Below, piece after piece: positions 2,329 to 13,326 of a DNA stretch of 13,326 bases. The notes under the pieces are model-generated. The model did no database searches and was not told the DNA's origin. It saw nothing but the letters and a program-made list of their open reading frames with translations. The stretch comes from a virus. The DNA lies in the UHGV virus genome UHGV-0203667; one strand, written 5' to 3'. Numbering within the stretch: position 1 is the stretch's first letter; each line of letters starts with the position of its first letter. Both the position numbers and the translations under genes were made by a program.

Positions 2329-2438
2329 ATAAAGGAATAGATCAATAAAAAGACCTCCCCCCTAACCCCCAGGGGGAATGGGGAGGGATCAGAGAGTGGG
2401 GAAGGTTTTCTAAGGGAAAAGCTTAACCCACAAATGAA

Positions 2439-2467
2439 AGCCTAAAGAGCATGAGCGACTCTTTAGG
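2439..2467. other. Strong hairpin: 10-bp stem GCCTAAAGAG / CTCTTTAGGC with 9-nt loop
   Basis: Perfect complementarity read from sequence; no flanking U-tract on the plus strand. Confidence 0.4.
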
Positions 2468-2839
2468 CAATCTGTGTGGGGTGACAATGTATTCCATACA
2501 TGACACGTCACCCAATTGTGTGTGGGGAGCGTAGTGCTATAGCACGTAGCTTTATAGTGTGGAGTCCGGATAAGAGACTTCTGTTTCCAATCCGGACCGT
2601 TTAAGCGAGTGGTTTCTCGCGCGGGTGCACGCACACATATATAAAGGATACACTCATAAATCGAAAATAAGGCCCCTAAATGGCCTTCTGGCTGCATTAA
2701 CCTGTGTGAGTAGTGCAATTGCATTACCTGACCTCTAAATCGCGTTAGAATCGATTTTAGAGCGCTTAAGGCAAAAGTGCTCTCCCTCCCTTGTGGACTT
2801 GCTTGTACCTATAGCACACCTAAATGATAATAATTCTCA

Positions 2840-2868
2840 TTGACAATTGGTTGACAATATGATAAGAT
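2840..2868 (+). promoter_or_regulatory. Candidate sigma70 promoter P0 (TTGACA, 17-bp spacer, TAAGAT) within a tandem TTGACAAT duplication
   Basis: -35 TTGACA at 2840-2845, -10 TAAGAT at 2863-2868; a second TTGACAAT at 2851-2858; sits about 35 nt upstream of the RBS of the small ORF at 2904. Confidence 0.35.
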
Positions 2869-2903
2869 TATAAATAGGGGGAGAAACAGATCCGGAGGTC
2901 AAT

Positions 2904-3053
2904 GTGGAAATTACAGATGTAATAGCGATCATCAACCTGGCTGTACTGTGGTGCGGTGTTGCCTACATAGCCGGAGTAACTGCAATCGACAACCTTGAAG
3001 AAAAAATGATAGATAAATACAAAAAGATTGTTGACAATCTCGCAAATAGCTGA
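2904..3053 (+). CDS. Small hydrophobic peptide (49 aa, GTG start), predicted single transmembrane helix with charged C-terminus
   Basis: SD GGAGG at 2894-2898, 5-nt spacing to GTG 2904; translation (V/M)EITDVIAIINLAVLWCGVAYIAGVTAIDNLEEKMIDKYKKIVDNLANS; stop TGA 3051-3053. Below the length cutoff of the ORF track. Overlapped by the minus-strand ORF 2868-3317, judged spurious. Confidence 0.4.
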   Translation: MEITDVIAIINLAVLWCGVAYIAGVTAIDNLEEKMIDKYKKIVDNLANS

Positions 3054-3059
3054 TAAAAT
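3031..3059 (+). promoter_or_regulatory. Near-consensus sigma70 promoter P1: TTGACA, 17-bp spacer, TAAAAT, with an A-rich upstream tract
   Basis: -35 at 3031-3036, -10 at 3054-3059; spacer contains the recurrent motif TCTCGCAAA (3038-3046); A-rich 3001-3026 resembles an UP element. Confidence 0.6.
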
Positions 3060-3065
3060 ATAAAT

Positions 3066-3141
3066 CATAGGGTAATTCTCATCATAGTGAATTTCCTTAA
3101 ACAAAAATGCGGGGGCTTGTCTTAAGTTCCCGTTTCTTTTT
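3066..3141 (+). ncRNA. Candidate ~75-nt small RNA or attenuated leader transcript, from P1 to the hairpin/U-tract at 3110-3141
   Basis: Strong promoter followed about 45 nt downstream by a 9-bp stem CGGGGGCUU / AAGUUCCCG (two G-U pairs) and UUUCUUUUU; no ORF in between. Confidence 0.3.
3110..3141 (+). terminator. Intrinsic terminator/attenuator in the leader upstream of the 3183 gene (also the likely 3' end of the small-peptide transcript)
   Basis: Stem 3110-3118 / 3124-3132, loop GUCUU, U-tract 3133-3141. Confidence 0.5.
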
Positions 3142-3182
3142 AACCGTATATCATTCTGATTCGAATTATAGGAGGCCCCGTT

Positions 3183-3398
3183 ATGGCAAGCAACGGACCG
3201 ACTAGCCCCCTGGTTAGCTGGACTACTGATGAGATCGTCGAAAACGTGCTCAGCGGCAAGTTTTATAAAAATTCTGTTTATGCTTTTATCCGTCGTAATA
3301 AAGGAAAATATCCACACATTGAAGCGGCAATTTTAGAACTGAACCGTCTTCGCCTTGAGCGTGAGCTGGCTAAATACACCAACAACATTGATAAATAA
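3183..3398 (+). CDS. Small hypothetical protein (71 aa), possibly regulatory
   Basis: SD AGGAGG at 3170-3175 with 7-nt spacing to ATG 3183; stop TAA 3396-3398; first gene after P1 and the attenuator. Confidence 0.75.
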   Translation: MASNGPTSPLVSWTTDEIVENVLSGKFYKNSVYAFIRRNKGKYPHIEAAILELNRLRLERELAKYTNNIDK

Positions 3399-3411
3399 TT
3401 ATGGGGGAACT

Positions 3412-4308
3412 ATGGCAAGTAATTACGGGGAGGTTTTTAATCCCCATTTCGAACGCCTCATTCAGTACACTTTTGATAAACCAGTAGCAACAACAATTGC
3501 TAATAAAAAGACTGGAAAAACAAAAGAGCGATTTAATTTAGACCTGATAGAGGTAACAATTTATGGAAAAATGGCAGGTTTTCATTTAAACGGGCAAGAA
3601 ATATTTATCTCAGAGCAGACCTTAGCAAAAATATGTGGTGTGAGTGATAGAAAAATCATCGAATCTATCAAAACTCTGGAAAATGCCGGGCTTATTTCTA
3701 AAGAAAGCCGGAAAGGTATGTCTAACATTTACAAACTGTTAATTACTCCTTCTCAAATCTGCAAAATGTGTGATGAACAGAAGATAGAACCAATGAGTAA
3801 TGCAGGTGGTGAAGATAAACAGCCTCAGGAAGCCCCAAAACAAGCCACACAGCAAGCTAAAAAGGCTAAAGTAGTGCAATTGCCTACCCAAGACACTAAA
3901 GCGCCTCAAATTAACGCTGTTAGTGACAAGCCACGCCGGGGCCGTCCTGTGAAAGATGTAACCGATGGGGGCTGGATTGTCCTGGGTGAGAGTGAAGCTA
4001 AAGATAGAATGCGCTCACTGTGGGAAAGCAAATACAAAGGTTTAAATAAACGTTGCCCGATCCGTTTGTCAAAGATTCAGGAGGATTTTTACACCACAGA
4101 GGAGGTAATACGCCATAAAGGCAATAGAGACGGTGAAATCTGGAAACCGGAAGAATACTGGCATTTAACCAGACCTGTTTTTATTTTTGCAAATAAACTT
4201 ATTGGGATGGGATTTGAAATATTGTTAGATCAAACTTACGGAGATTATCCTGAAATATTGTGGAGAAATGTTAGAAAGAATAAAAAAGGCATTTTAGAGT
4301 TTAGATAA
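3412..4308 (+). CDS. Winged-HTH DNA-binding protein with AT-hook-like linker (KPRRGRPVK) and a C-terminal domain of unknown function; putative replication initiator or regulator
   Basis: ATG 3412 after a GGGGG SD (the track's upstream TTG at 3355 has no RBS); N-terminal wHTH-like segment FISEQTLAKICGVSDRKIIESIKTLENAGLISKE; low-complexity linker EDKQPQEAPKQATQQAKKAK; 299 aa. Confidence 0.8.
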   Translation: MASNYGEVFNPHFERLIQYTFDKPVATTIANKKTGKTKERFNLDLIEVTIYGKMAGFHLNGQEIFISEQTLAKICGVSDRKIIESIKTLENAGLISKESRKGMSNIYKLLITPSQICKMCDEQKIEPMSNAGGEDKQPQEAPKQATQQAKKAKVVQLPTQDTKAPQINAVSDKPRRGRPVKDVTDGGWIVLGESEAKDRMRSLWESKYKGLNKRCPIRLSKIQEDFYTTEEVIRHKGNRDGEIWKPEEYWHLTRPVFIFANKLIGMGFEILLDQTYGDYPEILWRNVRKNKKGILEFR

Positions 4309-4349
4309 AAATACTGATAATCTTATTTTTTTGTTTAAGGAAATTTAAA

Positions 4350-4496
4350 ATGTATGGCGATTTTGATTATTACCTGGAAAAGGAAAAATATTTTGAAGAT
4401 GAACTATCACAACATTTTTCATATTGGGAAGAATATTGTGGTTGGTTAGCTGAAGATCCAGCAGATGAAGAAAATGATTCTGACATCCCTTATTAA
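4350..4496 (+). CDS. Small acidic, aromatic-rich protein (48 aa), hypothetical
   Basis: SD AAGGAA at 4337-4342 with 7-nt spacing to ATG 4350; MYGDFDYYLEKEKYFEDELSQHFSYWEEYCGWLAEDPADEENDSDIPY; below the track cutoff. Confidence 0.4.
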   Translation: MYGDFDYYLEKEKYFEDELSQHFSYWEEYCGWLAEDPADEENDSDIPY

Positions 4497-5159: not shown

Positions 5160-5179
5160 TCTAATTTAAGGAATTCCAA

Positions 5180-5623
5180 ATGTCTCAAATCGCTAAATTA
5201 TTATCCCAGGTTATCAAAGCTATCGACGCTGAAGATTCAAAAGTTCGCCAGGATCTTTTAGATGGCAAGTTTACCAACACCCTGGCATTTACCCGTGACA
5301 AAGAGCACTTCTTAAAGCACAGACATCACGCTTTCGCTGAATGCAAGTCCGCTAATGGTGATGTTTTCTATGTCGATTTGGTGGTTATGGCATGTAGATT
5401 GTGGATGATTCAGGACCTTATGCGCCAACACGGTGATGATCCTTTTATCAGCATGTGGAACAGCGCCCAGGATGGCTTTGTGATTGCTGCCTTATCCAAA
5501 TCCATGATTGAGGCAGAAGGCGCAAGCCTTCAGAACATGGCAGATCTCTTTGAAATAAGCGTAGGAATGATGCAGACCATGCTGCAGGCGGTGAAGCCTC
5601 TCAAACTGGTTAATCTTGCTTAA
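5180..5623 (+). CDS. Hypothetical protein (147 aa), first gene of the tape-measure operon
   Basis: SD AAGGAA at 5168-5173 with 6-nt spacing to ATG 5180; predicted largely helical; no family recognised. Confidence 0.8.
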   Translation: MSQIAKLLSQVIKAIDAEDSKVRQDLLDGKFTNTLAFTRDKEHFLKHRHHAFAECKSANGDVFYVDLVVMACRLWMIQDLMRQHGDDPFISMWNSAQDGFVIAALSKSMIEAEGASLQNMADLFEISVGMMQTMLQAVKPLKLVNLA

Positions 5624-8439: not shown

Positions 8440-8462
8440 TGACCGGATAAACTCCAGGCAAG

Positions 8463-8493
8463 AAAAAAGCCCCTAAGTGTTAACAAAGGGGCT
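8463..8493 (-). terminator. Intrinsic terminator for the leftward head operon (AGCCCCT / 12-nt loop / AGGGGCT followed by UUUUUU on the minus strand)
   Basis: 7-bp stem 8468-8474 / 8487-8493; A6 on the plus strand (8463-8468) gives a U-tract on the minus-strand RNA; the plus-strand side lacks a U-tract. Confidence 0.55.
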
Positions 8494-8523
8494 CTTCTCC
8501 GGTATCCTTTTGATGCGGGGCAA

Positions 8524-8571
8524 AACCTGCTAACAAAAATCAACCTCTCGCGAGACTAATGTTAGCAGGTT
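8524..8571. repeat. Perfect 12-bp inverted repeat AACCTGCTAACA ... TGTTAGCAGGTT with 24-nt spacer containing palindrome TCTCGCGAGA
   Basis: Arms 8524-8535 and 8560-8571 are exact reverse complements; inner palindrome 8546-8555; the spacer carries a degenerate copy of the AAATCAAC(C/T)TCTCGC motif. Confidence 0.55.
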
Positions 8572-9372: not shown

Positions 9373-10181
9373 TTGTTGATCTCCGTGATGTCATCAAGCA
9401 ACATGTTGGCCTTATCAATCATCGTTTCGTGGAACTCATTCGACACGACAGACTTATCACCTGCTGCAATCTTTCCCGCTGCCTCTCCCTGTGCATATTC
9501 CCCGCGATGCTTAGCCCTGGTTGATTTCGTAGCAGCATTGCCAGCGTTACTACCCTCTTTAGCACTGTTAACAGCACCCTTTTGCTGTGTTTTATTCACC
9601 TTCTTACTGTTAGTGAAAACTCCGGCATTTTCGACCATCTTCACCTTGAAGGTGCGGAATTCTTCAAAAGTGCAATCAATAGTGATGCAGTCGCCAGAGG
9701 AAGAGCTACGCTTAACTTCACATTTCGTCATGATGAAGTTCTCAAGGAGTCCGACATCTTCACCCACCAGGCTGATAATCTGGCGCTTGTCTCTCATTTC
9801 CATAAGTGCCTGAACAGCGGCAGCAGGGCGCATAGATTCACGGGGATTATCTGGATCAGTGTTCCGGTCGATGTAGTTCTCTTTCCGGATGATATGAGGG
9901 GAAGAGGTAATAATACCCGTAAAGCTGACAGATTTATCTTTAATGACGGCATGGTCTGACATGGTGGTGCCATCCTCGACCGCATAGCTCGATTTCTCAA
10001 CAGGGAACGAATAGCTGACATCAGAGATAGAGTCAAAGAAGATAGCCACATTATCGGTATAGTTGAAGCCATCCATCATATTTTTGTTTTGTGAATATCC
10101 CCCACACATAACAGTGAATGCAGGAGATCTCGACTCAGCTTGTTTTGCAGCTGTCAGAGCATCACTAGCCATATTAAACAT
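9369..10181 (-). CDS. Hypothetical phage structural protein (270 aa) with Lys/Ala/Gly-rich low-complexity C-terminal half
   Basis: In the head operon downstream of the major capsid gene; GGAGG lies 1 nt before ATG 10181 and 10 nt before the in-frame ATG 10172, so the true start may be 10172. Confidence 0.7.
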   Translation of the reverse strand: MFNMASDALTAAKQAESRSPAFTVMCGGYSQNKNMMDGFNYTDNVAIFFDSISDVSYSFPVEKSSYAVEDGTTMSDHAVIKDKSVSFTGIITSSPHIIRKENYIDRNTDPDNPRESMRPAAAVQALMEMRDKRQIISLVGEDVGLLENFIMTKCEVKRSSSSGDCITIDCTFEEFRTFKVKMVENAGVFTNSKKVNKTQQKGAVNSAKEGSNAGNAATKSTRAKHRGEYAQGEAAGKIAAGDKSVVSNEFHETMIDKANMLLDDITEINK

Positions 10182-10246
10182 GCCTCCAAATTGAATCTTT
10201 TGGTGGCCCTGTGTGAATTCTGATAAAAAGACAGGGCTATCTATCG

Positions 10247-10498
10247 TTATTTTGCAAAACGATTATGCGCATTCAGGGCTTTTTTGCGGTCCTGGGCTTG
10301 TTTGCGTGCAATAAAATGTTCGAAAGTCTCGGCCCAGGTGCATTTATTATATTCACGGTATTTGTGCATAGCCTGGCGGCTAACTTGATAGACAGATGCG
10401 AATGTGGAGATACGCAGGAATTCCGGCAGATCCTCGTCATCGATATGGATAATATCAAAAGGCACGTCATCACGGTCGCCGTATAAAACAATTTTCAT
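10247..10498 (-). CDS. Small hypothetical protein (83 aa) with an HTH-like stretch (LRISTFASVYQVSRQAMHKY)
   Basis: ATG 10498 with SD GAGGTG at 5-nt spacing (the track's GTG at 10507 lacks an RBS); lies between the major capsid gene and the 270-aa gene. Confidence 0.6.
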   Translation of the reverse strand: MKIVLYGDRDDVPFDIIHIDDEDLPEFLRISTFASVYQVSRQAMHKYREYNKCTWAETFEHFIARKQAQDRKKALNAHNRFAK

Positions 10499-10534
10499 AA
10501 AAGACACCTCAAAAACTTAAGACGGGGATAACAA

Positions 10535-10584
10535 AAAAGGGAGGAGGGAAAGACCTACCCACAATCTCCCACCTCTTCCCTTTT
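10535..10584 (-). terminator. Terminator-like or attenuator hairpin just downstream of the major capsid gene (G/C-rich imperfect stem with T-tracts on both sides)
   Basis: GGGAGGAGG (10539-10547) pairs with CCTCTTCCC (10572-10580), with one non-Watson-Crick position; T-runs flank it on both strands; large loop, so probably partial termination only. Confidence 0.3.
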
Positions 10585-10587
10585 CTT

Positions 10588-11631
10588 TTATTTAGCCTTG
10601 GCTTTTGCCAGAGCAGCGGCGGCGGTGTTTTTAACACTCACTTTAACCACCACCTCGGGCATCATATTCATAAATGCGTATGAGCTCTCGCAAAAGACCT
10701 CGCGCTTAGCTCTTGAATCTTGCATATACATGAAAGCTTCACGTGCAGCGCCGTTTGCCAGCTGCAGATTGCGAGCGCAAGGGCCAAAAAATTGAGTATA
10801 AACACCCATATCGCCCAGTGCATAAGGCTGGAATTGTGGGACCAGATAAGCAGTATTCTCTGGCAGACTATCCATTTGCACCACACGCAGGGCTAAGCCC
10901 GGAATGCGGAAGGTCGGGAAGCCCGGCAGAATATCCTCAGGGAACATCAGACCTTTGTCGGTAATGTTCTGATTGCCGAACAACAGCACTTTACGAAGCA
11001 GCTCGTCAGTCTGAATTGCAGCAAAGAGTTCAGCACGGCAGAACAGGGTGAAACCACGCAGGGCACGAACGACACCACGCTGTTTAACCTTGCTCAGTGC
11101 AACCAGGTCCTGCAGCTGTTTAAGGATATCTTGAGCTAGATCCACTTCAGAGGTGGACTGTTCTACTCCCAGCAGTTCGCACACATTCAGTTCTTTACCC
11201 TTGGTGAGGATAATTTTGTTCTCAAAGAGAGCAAGCTGGCGTGCTTCTTCGTGGGTCTGGCGTAAGCCTTCGCCAAGCTGAATAACACGACGAGCGGTTA
11301 CAGACTCTAAATTCTCTTCGGAATCTTTGCCCGGAACACGGATACCTTGCCAGTCTGACGGGAATATGGCCGAGCTGGCGGCTGTAAAGGCCATGTCGCC
11401 CGTGCCCGTTTCACGCTCATCTGCGGTAATGGTAGCCATCTGTTCACCGTAGCGCGGATACTGACCGAAAGCGGTTTGTTTCACCCTGCGAACTTTGTCG
11501 TACTCAAATTTGAACGTCGAAGAATAGACGGTAGTATTAAACACGTTCATTGCTGAAATAATCTGGTTATCCAGCGGGATATCTTTAATCAGACCACACA
11601 GATCGCGAACTTCGAATTCTTTCTTAGCCAT
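10588..11631 (-). CDS. Major capsid protein, lambda gpE-like (347 aa)
   Basis: Perfect SD AAGGAGG 6 nt upstream of ATG 11631 (the track's longer N-terminal extension is discounted); size about 340 aa; segments recalled as resembling lambda gpE (RRVIQLGEGLRQTHEEARQLA ~ RRRIIMQNMRDEELAIAQVEE; C-terminal REAFMYMQDS...PEVVVKV ~ AREFTMIQSAP...DEFVSV); preceded by a decoration-sized gene. Confidence 0.7.
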   Translation of the reverse strand: MAKKEFEVRDLCGLIKDIPLDNQIISAMNVFNTTVYSSTFKFEYDKVRRVKQTAFGQYPRYGEQMATITADERETGTGDMAFTAASSAIFPSDWQGIRVPGKDSEENLESVTARRVIQLGEGLRQTHEEARQLALFENKIILTKGKELNVCELLGVEQSTSEVDLAQDILKQLQDLVALSKVKQRGVVRALRGFTLFCRAELFAAIQTDELLRKVLLFGNQNITDKGLMFPEDILPGFPTFRIPGLALRVVQMDSLPENTAYLVPQFQPYALGDMGVYTQFFGPCARNLQLANGAAREAFMYMQDSRAKREVFCESSYAFMNMMPEVVVKVSVKNTAAAALAKAKAK

Positions 11632-11978: not shown

Positions 11979-12458
11979 TTGATCACCTGCGATTTAAATT
12001 AACTCCCCTCAAAGGGCTCAGGTATAACCTCTCAAACCACGACAGGCTCGGGCCGAAAAGTTATGCCGGAAATCTAAAGGGGGATTGATATAAGGAGAGG
12101 GAGATAGCCCCGCACCGTCCAAGCGGGGGCTATTCCATATGGGGAAAACCAACAACAGTTGGCTGATAGTTCACTGCATGGTTACGGTTGCTAGAGAGCA
12201 CTATCACGAAAGGCACTCCCCCGAATCAGTTCAGGCTGCGGTCACATCAGCGGGGAAATACCTTTCGGGATAGCTACCCACACCGAAAACCCGCAAAAGA
12301 AAACTGTGTGGATAACTAGCCCAATAGGAGAATTAATCGACCACTCTAAGATGATCAGGGTAGTGTTATTTATAAGGCGGCACCGCTACCTGGTCGCCGT
12401 TACTTTGGAGGAAAATACGGCAAATCACCTTCGCTAAATGATTCACGGTATACTGTAT

Positions 12459-12487: not shown

Positions 12488-12576
12488 CACCCTGATTATA
12501 TAAATTCTAATAATTAGCGTAGTAACGGTATTTTCAGACCTCTATCAATCCCATCAATACGTCACCTCATCCCTGA

Positions 12577-12660: not shown

Positions 12661-12757
12661 ATCTTTTGATCAATATCAATGTTTTCCTGGGATTTGCCCG
12701 GCTATAGTTCGAATCAAGGAAGGGGAGCATTGATAGCACCAAAACCGAACAAACAAA

Positions 12758-12772
12758 TCAACTTCTCGCAAA
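12758..12772 (+). promoter_or_regulatory. Conserved leader motif TCAACTTCTCGCAAA directly 5' of the SD of the 12784 gene (identical copy at 13301-13315)
   Basis: 15-nt exact repeat; both copies are followed by an SD-like sequence (AAAGGTGA / AAAGGGG); the TCTCGCAAA core also lies in the P1 spacer (3038-3046). Confidence 0.45.
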
Positions 12773-12783
12773 AGGTGATAGTT

Positions 12784-12906
12784 ATGGGTATCAAGAACAG
12801 TGCCAGCGCATGGCAAAAGGCCAGGTTTCATCACCCACACATTGTTAAGGCAATTGAGGTGGTTGGAGTGTTAGCCCTGATGTTAGCTCTGTGTGTGGAG
12901 GTGTGA
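12784..12906 (+). CDS. Small peptide (40 aa) with hydrophobic C-terminal segment, predicted membrane peptide
   Basis: SD AGGTGA at 12772-12777, 6-nt spacing to ATG 12784; MGIKNSASAWQKARFHHPHIVKAIEVVGVLALMLALCVEV; the track ORF starts earlier (12679) but has no RBS there. Confidence 0.45.
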   Translation: MGIKNSASAWQKARFHHPHIVKAIEVVGVLALMLALCVEV

Positions 12907-13008
12907 GATGGGCAAAGGAGGCAAAGCATTTTTTAATAGGTCTGGCTATCCTGGATGTTCTACTAATCATGATTGAGCGGAGTTTATGAACAGCATTGAG
13001 AGGAGTTT

Positions 13009-13269
13009 ATGACGGGGGCTAAAGATATCAGGAGACTGAGGGAAGAGCTGATAGCTGAAATTAAAGCTAAGGCAAAGCAAATGGAGATAGCCGCGCAAAT
13101 GGATGTAGCGGAACAGATGTACAAGATGGTTGAAGAGGGAACACCACGACAGGTTATCGCTAAAACCTTCGGTGTGGGGATCGCCACCGTGCACAGAAGG
13201 CTGAAAGCCTATGCCGACTACCACAACATTGAGAGAGGGGAGGATGGGAGATTTAAGAAGAATAAATAG
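13009..13269 (+). CDS. Small DNA-binding protein (86 aa): coiled-coil-like N-terminus plus C-terminal HTH of the Hin/resolvase or sigma region-4 type (TPRQVIAKTFGVGIATVHRRLK)
   Basis: SD GAGAGGAG before ATG 13009; preceded by a tandem-duplicated RBS-ATG unit and an 8-codon upstream ORF whose stop overlaps the start (ATGA). Confidence 0.75.
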   Translation: MTGAKDIRRLREELIAEIKAKAKQMEIAAQMDVAEQMYKMVEEGTPRQVIAKTFGVGIATVHRRLKAYADYHNIERGEDGRFKKNK

Positions 13270-13300
13270 TAGGAACAGTCCAACAGGTTATTAACTAAAT

Positions 13301-13315
13301 TCAACTTCTCGCAAA
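13301..13315 (+). promoter_or_regulatory. Second copy of leader motif TCAACTTCTCGCAAA followed by SD-like AAAGGGG; downstream gene start lies beyond the window
   Basis: Exact 15-nt match to 12758-12772, 32 nt after the stop of the 13009 gene. Confidence 0.4.
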
Positions 13316-13326
13316 GGGGTACCGTC

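Follow-up and report, generated by a model that had tools for sequence, protein, structure and literature searches.

Do two very short hydrophobic open reading frames (ORFs) in the virus genome UHGV-0203667 encode proteins, and what would such peptides do in the regions in which they lie? The stretch analysed comprised 13,326 nucleotides (nt) and is referred to at its full length as the window. ORF A was located at 2904-3053 and ORF B at 12784-12906, both on the + strand. The window matched circular Escherichia coli plasmids of 13.2-13.7 kilobases (kb), with 81-95% of its length covered at 91-93% identity and no chromosomal match; because the matches were circular plasmids of this size and nothing chromosomal, the window was treated as one whole element. 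The plasmid family measures 13-14 kb and its hosts are E. coli and Shigella. Thirty-five further elements, taken from annotated records and from contigs encoding the ORF A peptide, were combined with the window into a comparison set of 36. For family assignment, 18 window proteins were scanned against Pfam and 10 of these also against PHROGs. The comparison of relatives indicates that ORF A and ORF B are real, conserved protein-coding genes for single-helix hydrophobic peptides.

Conservation and coding signals of ORF A and ORF B

ORF A comprised a GTG start, 49 codons and a stop. A Shine-Dalgarno sequence, GGAGG (2894-2898, + strand), was found 5 nt before the start and was kept in 35 of the 36 elements. 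Because the window contains 127 ORFs of at least 30 amino acids, a frame of this size is uninformative by itself. Among the 93 window ORFs of 30-70 amino acids, five reached a Kyte-Doolittle 19-residue mean of 2.0, and ORF A alone had a Shine-Dalgarno sequence as well. The frame was 49 codons long throughout the comparison set, in which 17 distinct DNA sequences were present, with 0 indels and 0 stops. The start was GTG in some elements and ATG in others, at the same position.

Polymorphism was computed for ORF A and for the frames that share its DNA. The ratio of nonsynonymous to synonymous polymorphism (pN/pS) was 0.25 overall and 0.11 for codons 7-44; for the other two + strand frames it was 1.25-1.65. 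Variable sites at first, second and third codon positions numbered 10/8/24 over the whole ORF and 3/2/14 in the hydrophobic codons 7-28 (binomial p = 4e-4). Codons 29-44 were almost invariant at all three positions, and the last four codons, which lie in the spacer of the promoter-like site P1 described below, were freely variable. A single antisense frame gave a low ratio; this frame has its third positions in common with ORF A and contains a stop. Two other frames at the locus were rejected as genes, a 149-amino-acid antisense ORF (2868-3317) that showed no constraint (pN/pS 1.08) and a 6-codon ATG frame at 2902 whose ATG is lost in element L007.

A first-pass annotation of this DNA had described ORF A as a gene for a hydrophobic single-helix peptide with a good Shine-Dalgarno sequence, and the GGAGG sequence, the hydropathy and the modelled structure agree with that description. 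The Kyte-Doolittle 19-residue mean was 2.18 for residues 7-25, well over 1.6. The peptide is hydrophobic from approximately residue 6 to residue 28 and continues as a charged amphipathic tail with four lysines and five aspartates or glutamates. The AlphaFold2 model consisted of a single continuous helix (residues 3-48; predicted local distance difference test score, pLDDT, 82). One ORF A variant is on record for 784 contigs. Word-indexed and exhaustive profile protein searches found no ORF A homologue beyond the plasmid family; apart from its members they returned one phage fusion protein and, through the charged tail, two giant repetitive proteins.

ORF B comprised an ATG start and 40 codons, with a GGTGAT-type Shine-Dalgarno sequence upstream. 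Its peptide is basic in the N-terminal half and forms a hydrophobic helix at the C-terminus, where it ends CVEV, and the Kyte-Doolittle 19-residue mean was 2.48 for residues 20-38. The pN/pS was 0.20. Variable sites were distributed 3/4/21 over the codon positions (p = 8e-6), or 1/2/10 when the most divergent element was removed. A 75-amino-acid version of ORF B starting at an ATG at 12679 was rejected, its upstream in-frame extension not being conserved; because the length of this extension varied from 0 to 51 codons between elements, the 40-codon ORF was taken as the conserved unit.

The hydrophobic character of ORF B and its position directly after a conserved leader motif had likewise been noted at first pass and were recovered here. 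The motif, AAATCAACTTCTCGCAAAAGG (21 nt; 12755-12775, + strand), has its 5' end 29 nt before the ORF B ATG, and a second copy (13298-13318, + strand) stands at the same 29-nt distance, counted from its 5' end, ahead of the ATG at window position 1. Two matches with an equal start-codon distance compare with 0.04 expected. The 32 nt up to the ORF B ATG were identical in 28 of 33 elements, and the motif also precedes the ORF B homologue in the distant relative L012. The motif may be the site of a translational regulator. No complement of it was found elsewhere in the window within 3 mismatches. Weaker copies were seen at 8537-8557 and 11996-12016.

Both ORFs had been called unannotated. This did not hold for ORF A, which is a 150-nt 'hypothetical protein' coding sequence of the Prokaryotic Genome Annotation Pipeline (PGAP) in 8/8 annotated relatives (for example WP_157794903.1, WP_159042952.1 and WP_157909277.1). 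It did hold for ORF B in those eight RefSeq relatives, yet ORF B is carried by a few GenBank records (ELJ75739.1, CTZ54301.1) and was called by other gene finders. Conservation of the frames in relatives had been set beforehand as the refuting test for both genes; ORF A was intact in 36/36 elements and ORF B in 32/33, with third-position substitutions dominant.

Promoter-like sites P0 and P1 and a predicted small RNA

ORF A lies between a promoter-like site, P0, and a predicted terminator, and its 3' end overlaps a second promoter-like site, P1. Consensus and terminator scans agree on this arrangement with the first-pass annotation. P0 (TTGACA-17-TGaTAAGAT; 2840-2868, + strand) matched the consensus at 10/12 positions with a TG extension, was present in all relatives, and has a predicted start near 2875. 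P1 (TTGACA-17-TGaTAAAAT; 3031-3059, + strand) matched at 11/12 positions with TG and is positioned within the last 8 codons of ORF A, the TG of its extended -10 coming from the ORF A stop codon TGA. The P1 hexamers were present in 36/36 elements, with an invariant -35, a -10 of TAAAAT in 34 and TATAAT in 2, and a variable spacer. A terminator-like hairpin was placed at 3109-3133 (+ strand), and the T run behind it extends to 3141. Between ORF A and the next gene lie a promoter, a terminator and 130 nt. The P0-ORF A-P1 block was found in 35/35 relatives with mosaic flanks on both sides, the window's allele at 3101-3800 being common to just ~40% of elements.

A possible extended -10 promoter for the ORF B operon, TGATTATATAAAT (12493-12505, + strand), was proposed because it resembles P0 and P1 in their -10 regions. 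It stands back to back with a minus-strand promoter (12487-12459) that matched the consensus at 12/12 positions. P0, P1, 12493-12505 and 12470-12455 (minus strand) have a common extended -10, TGATAnnAT, followed by ATAAAT or ATACA. The view that both ORFs occupy regulatory spots was borne out, both being found in genuine control regions. P0 (2860-2876) and P1 (3051-3067) look like paralogues, with the pattern GTTGACAAT ... TGATAArAT.ATAAAT..ATAGGG.

P1 is predicted to give a small RNA of ~76 nt (3066-3141, + strand) composed of stem-loop 1, an A-rich single-stranded linker and the intrinsic terminator. The computed fold had an energy of -22.2 kcal/mol (z = -3.7), and 0/200 shuffles were equally stable. 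Downstream of P1 every element carried a stretch of 70-96 nt closing with an intrinsic terminator, in at least 7 sequence types. The unpaired linker contains a putative antisense seed, GAATTTCCTTAAACAAAAA (3089-3107, + strand), which is complementary over 18 consecutive Watson-Crick pairs and one G-U pair to TTTTTGTTTAAGGAAATTT (4328-4346, + strand). This candidate target is the Shine-Dalgarno region of a very acidic 48-amino-acid ORF (16 aspartates plus glutamates; 4350-4496, + strand) downstream of the replication initiator gene. The ORF is WP_001682500.1 in relatives and is presumed to be the regulated gene.

Scanning the elements for duplexes with the whole RNA was uninformative, its G+C-rich terminator pairing indiscriminately; the P1 RNA leader was instead searched without gaps against the + strand of its own element. 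That strand was covered apart from a stretch of ~245 nt beginning at the start of ORF A. In 8/9 elements the top match was the target position. Six alleles were aligned for covariation; 96.5% of cells were paired and 8/19 pairs had changed on both sides, and neither any of the shuffles (0/500) nor any slid register was comparable. In a duplex-energy matrix the cognate duplex was the most stable in its row for most alleles, type 6 included, with L037 as the exception. A region at 5161-5179, the Shine-Dalgarno region of a 147-amino-acid gene (TTTAAGGAATTCCAAATG), resembles the RNA target and gave the second or third best leader match in L024 and L037; the small RNA may have a further target here.

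The P1 RNA is read as an antisense RNA that would act like c4 of phages P1 and P7. A different account of the match between 3089-3107 and 4328-4346 would make the two segments inverted DNA sites, for example operators of the variable 71-amino-acid protein, kept alike by gene conversion and not by RNA-RNA pairing. The adjoining 4312-4334 is an inverted match to the P0 -10 region, so that a promoter-plus-leader unit was possibly duplicated in inverted orientation, and the allele of the 71-amino-acid gene changes along with the leader. Such sites would not account for the position of the match, which covers a Shine-Dalgarno region in the window and, in the type 6 allele with its unrelated RNA sequence, spans the start codon of the different small ORF that takes the corresponding place. 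The seed, moreover, sits in an unpaired linker just ahead of the intrinsic terminator of a short transcript, some of the differences between alleles are G-U compatible and not identical, and element L004 is without the target and the 48-amino-acid ORF together. We consider the operator account unlikely and retain the antisense RNA as the preferred interpretation. The small RNA had no match in Rfam, C4 family included (cmscan, E <= 1), and was for that reason not placed in the C4 family.

The ORF B gene cluster and possible roles of the peptides

Downstream of ORF B the genes are closely packed. ORF C (12908-12976, + strand) starts one base past the ORF B stop (GGAGGTGTGAGATG) and is frameshifted in the window, where it contains a T6 run (12929-12934). 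In most relatives it encodes a hydrophobic peptide of 23-26 amino acids (MGKGGKAFLIGLAVLDFVLIIIERSL). Across 31 elements ORF C was intact (T5) in 21, frameshifted (T6) in 3 and truncated (T4) in 6, and was replaced by an unrelated ORF in L034. These T-run variants may be natural null alleles, a tuning of the coupled helix-turn-helix gene, or assembly errors. A one-base slip would restore the hydrophobic part of ORF C in the window. A mini-ORF, MNSIERSL (12986-13012, + strand), arises from a duplicated TTGAGnGGAGTTTATGA unit, and its stop codon shares bases with the start codon of the helix-turn-helix gene (ATGA); in relatives with a single copy of the unit, the ORF C stop directly overlaps that start. 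The helix-turn-helix gene (13009-13269, + strand) encodes an 86-amino-acid HTH_7 protein (PF02796, E = 3.5e-6) and has a strong Shine-Dalgarno sequence of its own. The same cluster contains a gene for a 176-amino-acid polytopic membrane protein with a basic C-terminus (GGWLSIGKRGVSWRKSKKLF; 1-531, + strand).

Homologues of this membrane protein adjoin ORF B-like and ORF C-like peptides in two distant relatives. In L012, whose capsid protein is 51% identical, the leader motif is followed by a 20-amino-acid ORF (MKRYEMIMLIVMMIVMCVEL), two hydrophobic ORFs (42 and 31 amino acids), a helix-turn-helix gene, and a 162-amino-acid homologue of the membrane protein. L041 is an 18.9-kb E. coli element with a membrane protein of 46% identity; it has a 42-amino-acid ORF ending ...VLAMVLACELVGRF, and an ORF C-like gene and a 66-amino-acid two-helix protein lie between this ORF and the membrane protein. 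The ORF B-like peptides of both relatives are always found beside further tiny hydrophobic ORFs and a membrane protein of 160-176 amino acids. Because this neighbourhood recurs in L012 and L041, ORF B was assigned to a conserved cluster of membrane-protein genes. Upstream of the small membrane ORF cluster of L041, a 40-amino-acid ORF (5402-5524) matched Lambda_Kil (PF06301).

We propose that ORF A and ORF B are translated genes for very small single-helix inner-membrane proteins. The explanation as a whole, with its P0 and P1 transcripts, its antisense RNA and its inferred roles, is given a probability of roughly 0.6. ORF A would be the sole cistron of a short transcript running from P0 to the terminator at 3141, and its hydrophobic N-terminal half would be under selection for amino-acid sequence. 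The C-terminal third would in addition be kept constant as DNA, since this stretch also supplies P1 with its A-rich upstream region and its -35. P1 would fire within ORF A and yield the ~76-nt terminated RNA, the seed of which would pair in vivo with the Shine-Dalgarno region of the 48-amino-acid ORF; P0 transcripts would stop at this terminator too, so that the small RNA would form the 3' part of the ORF A mRNA. The small RNA would keep the 48-amino-acid ORF, and probably the downstream genes too, off during plasmid carriage. ORF A would be made simultaneously, insert into the membrane and act there as a carrier-state factor (for example in exclusion, or in host or helper modulation), not as a killer toxin. 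ORF B would be the first cistron of the closely packed chain of ORF B, ORF C, mini-ORF and helix-turn-helix gene, and ORFs B and C would be small subunits or modulators of the 176-amino-acid membrane protein, with which ORF B has its start motif in common.

Superinfection exclusion or another membrane role is possible, the relevant features seen being the hydrophobic helix and a strong sigma-70-type promoter. A carrier-state inner-membrane factor made along with an immunity-like RNA is the best inference for ORF A, as are small partners of the 176-amino-acid membrane protein for ORFs B and C.

Several points weigh against this explanation. The support for the two genes is comparative sequence evidence, drawn from close relatives (~83-100% identical in ORF A) with small substitution counts, and these counts are not fully independent because the elements recombine. 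Deep conservation of ORF A is beyond reach because it has no homologue outside the family, and L012, the sole distant contig that was possibly informative for it, ends short of the equivalent position. At codons 29-44, near-invariant everywhere, selection on protein and selection on DNA are inseparable because P1 has its A-rich upstream region and its -35 there. The covariation alignment was built manually out of the segments with the best complementarity, a procedure biased toward pairing. The biological roles given to ORF A and ORF B are guesses.

A rival role for ORF A, also raised in the first-pass annotation, is that of a type I (hok-like) toxin. It would stabilize the plasmid by post-segregational killing and be controlled by an antisense RNA from the opposite strand of the invariant block. 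ORF A (49 amino acids) and ORF B (40 amino acids) do have the size (<~60 amino acids) and hydrophobicity of such toxins, ORF A stands beside the origin and replication genes, and no partition or toxin-antitoxin gene was found among the Pfam and PHROG matches of the element. The block 2996-3039 is nearly invariant, there are weak minus-strand promoter matches at 3034-3006 and 3091-3064, and a minus-strand terminator lies at 2687-2669. These promoter matches, from which an overlapping cis-antisense RNA might conceivably arise, reach no more than 9/12, in a scan whose total of 22 sites is no higher than the 23.9 in shuffles, and the 3091-3064 site is absent in type 6, which is the most frequent RNA type and has an intact ORF A. 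The invariance of the block is accounted for by the upstream region and -35 of P1.

The search for toxin partners and families did not favour this rival either. Within the element, the best trans antisense partner of the ORF A start region scored 10, equal to the shuffled mean of 10.0, and complements of the ORF B start region were no better than shuffled queries. Neither peptide matched a toxin family in Pfam or PHROGs. The expression signals of ORF A, a near-consensus promoter, a 29-nt leader and a strong Shine-Dalgarno sequence (GGAGG), are unlike those of translationally silenced type I toxin mRNAs and would mean constitutive high expression of a toxin. Like hok/sok, ldr/rdl, tisB/istR, ibs/sib and fst, the locus combines a short hydrophobic plasmid peptide with nearby replication functions, and the 20-amino-acid peptide of L012 resembles Ibs in size and composition; unlike those systems, it has no family match, no detected antisense partner and no long structured leader, and its promoter and Shine-Dalgarno sequence are strong. 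The toxin role is accordingly judged improbable. A holin or antiholin role, suggested at the same time, fared no better. ORF A does combine a transmembrane segment with a charged C-terminal tail, and ORF B is without such a tail, but neither peptide matched a holin family in Pfam or PHROGs, and no lysis family that would mark a cassette with endolysin or spanin was found among the scanned proteins.

The ORFs might instead matter in cis only. Translation of ORF A would then shield the P0 transcript from Rho or occlude P1, and coupling through ORFs B and C would set the level of the helix-turn-helix regulator. The overlap of the ORF A 3' end with P1 fits this idea, as do the adjacent or overlapping stops and starts from ORF B to the helix-turn-helix gene and the T4/T5/T6 polymorphism of ORF C, which would alter coupling. 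It does not account for the purifying selection on the amino acids of the hydrophobic segments (pN/pS 0.11-0.20), nor for distant ORF B homologues that stay hydrophobic despite unrelated DNA. The helix-turn-helix gene, moreover, has its own ribosome-binding site, and ORF A is set apart from the next gene by the intervening promoter, terminator and 130 nt. We judge a purely cis-acting role unlikely because selection acts on the amino-acid sequence. That ORF A is no gene at all, its frame being open merely through DNA constraint on a double promoter or operator region, is very improbable: P0, P1 and their surroundings are highly conserved and codons 29-44 are invariant at every codon position, but constraint on DNA alone predicts no codon periodicity, whereas the hydrophobic part varies at third and not at first or second positions (3/2/14, p = 4e-4) and 36 elements lack indels and stops and switch between GTG and ATG starts in place.

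As inner-membrane peptides, ORF A and ORF B would join the small single-pass membrane proteins of E. coli and phages, such as AcrZ, MgrB and CydX, and T4 Imm and other exclusion proteins. Proteins of this kind are often encoded by the first or a tightly coupled cistron beside a larger membrane-protein gene, are lineage-restricted, and are usually missed by annotation. ORF A and ORF B are like them in having 20-50 amino acids and one hydrophobic helix and unlike them in sequence, no relationship to any of them being found.

For the small RNA, the nearest known arrangement is immI of P1/P7, with the c4 antisense RNA, icd and ant; the P4 CI RNA and the N15 CA RNA are related. As with c4, an RNA of ~75 nt lies upstream of its target, in the same direction, with complementarity to the ribosome-binding site in front of a small ORF that heads downstream genes, and the allelic RNA-target pairs seen here could give distinct immunity specificities. 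The P1 RNA differs in having its own promoter and terminator, c4-type RNAs being cut from a precursor. It also lies 1.2 kb from its target with a replication gene between them, has a membrane-peptide gene before it, and matches no Rfam family at the threshold used.

Small RNAs derived from 3' ends through an internal promoter are known from MicL in cutC and DapZ in dapB, and dual-function RNAs from SgrS/SgrT and RNAIII/hld. The locus is like these in the position of the small RNA promoter inside a coding 3' end, in a long mRNA and a short RNA that would end at one terminator, and in a small protein and a base-pairing RNA that one locus would provide; it is unlike them in belonging to a mobile element, not a chromosome, and in being known from its sequence. 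Replication leader peptides (tap of R1, repY of IncI/IncB) resemble ORF A as small ORFs between an origin and a replication gene, near an antisense-type RNA. ORF A, unlike tap and repY, is not translationally coupled to the initiator gene, a promoter, a terminator and the 71-amino-acid gene intervening, and the RNA here would target a gene downstream of the replication gene.

The element and its link to rV5-like phages

Besides the genes described above, the window encodes a tape-measure protein (PF20155), a Dit-like tail protein (PF21821), a major head (capsid) protein (phrog_29, E = 3e-22), and a lambda-O-like replication initiator (3412-4308, + strand; HTH_36; phrog_270, E = 1e-10); the plasmid family carries genes of these four kinds. 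Searched against a phage collection, the capsid protein matched rV5-like phages as well as related myoviruses that infect other enterobacteria or Vibrio; the matches had ~25% identity and covered 96% of the protein. No terminase or portal family was found among the Pfam and PHROG matches. The element was classed as non-mobilizable. No capsid-related locus was found in the representative genomes of GTDB or in IMG/VR, and the plasmid family was confined to E. coli and Shigella assemblies. A near-identity search of a phage database with 2400-4400 gave no match, and a distant search with 2800-3200 gave a single chance match of 56 nt to a Lactococcus phage. No transfer RNA or transfer-messenger RNA was found in the scan for these genes. 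Rfam cmscan of the whole window (E <= 1) returned one weak unrelated match at 8458-8498 and none in the ORF A and ORF B regions.

Upstream of P0, 2.3 kb (532-2839) were without a conserved ORF, and 601-1800 was present in ~95% of relatives at 92-97% identity. Repeats of 11 nt were seen at 561-611, and four iteron-like repeats of ~22 nt at 2213-2322, within a portion of the region that varies between elements. The motif CCCCACACA occurred in 15 copies in the window against 2.3 expected, 8 of them at 1395-2527. Three minus-strand terminator-like hairpins lie at 2355-2687. The region 532-2839 is probably the origin and possibly also specifies untranslated RNAs. A 35-nt direct repeat (2709-2743 and 3870-3904; 74% identical, with the first 14 nt, AGTAGTGCAATTGC, exact) joins the region upstream of P0 to the interior of the initiator gene.

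The phage fusion protein returned by the ORF A search is an 82-amino-acid, in-frame nom_18::ORF A product on contig L009 (Logan ERR13318355; L009 region 10001-11583). This contig is 98.5% identical to the Vequintavirus phage nom except over ~7 kb that begin in the 3' part of nom_18 and reach into nom_25; in their place stand 1.4 kb with 96% identity to plasmid L003. In this insert are the final 80 nt of ORF A, P1, the small RNA and terminator, two small genes, and the 5' part of the initiator gene. Its left junction recurs in a second sample, L010 (ERR13318739). The junction reflects either genuine recombination in a phage or a chimeric assembly; on both views the samples contained plasmid and phage together. 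That ORF A and nom_18 are homologous, as the in-frame fusion suggested, was rejected, BLASTP finding nothing; the junction looks like microhomology.

Taken with its head and tail genes, the 13-kb element looks like an undescribed plasmid-borne satellite of rV5-like phages. A literature search for satellites of rV5-like phages or plasmid-borne capsid-encoding satellites found nothing relevant, and a 2025 review lists just one plasmid, an inovirus satellite, as so far shown to be a phage satellite (PMC12282955). On a wider proposal, which we regard as tentative and rather doubtful, an immunity switch with P0-ORF A-P1 as its conserved core would operate in an undescribed family of plasmid-borne satellites of rV5-like phages (Vequintavirus). 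One locus would then make both a membrane peptide and a c4-like RNA, the alleles would be separate immunity types, and helper-type phages would have captured the P1-RNA module. If this is true, phage capture of that module, fused in frame to nom_18, could be a counter-measure against the satellite.

Proteins as small as those of ORF A and ORF B are routinely overlooked or left 'hypothetical'; here both pass a selection test. The peptides join a known kind of protein, and the RNA-target pair and the element itself are the newer part of these results. The element is apparently undescribed so far, and ORF A and ORF B mark its two control regions. The RNA-target pair, with its natural compensatory alleles, would offer a ready system for RNA-based immunity specificity, and the peptides would provide handles on how the element coexists with its host and helper.

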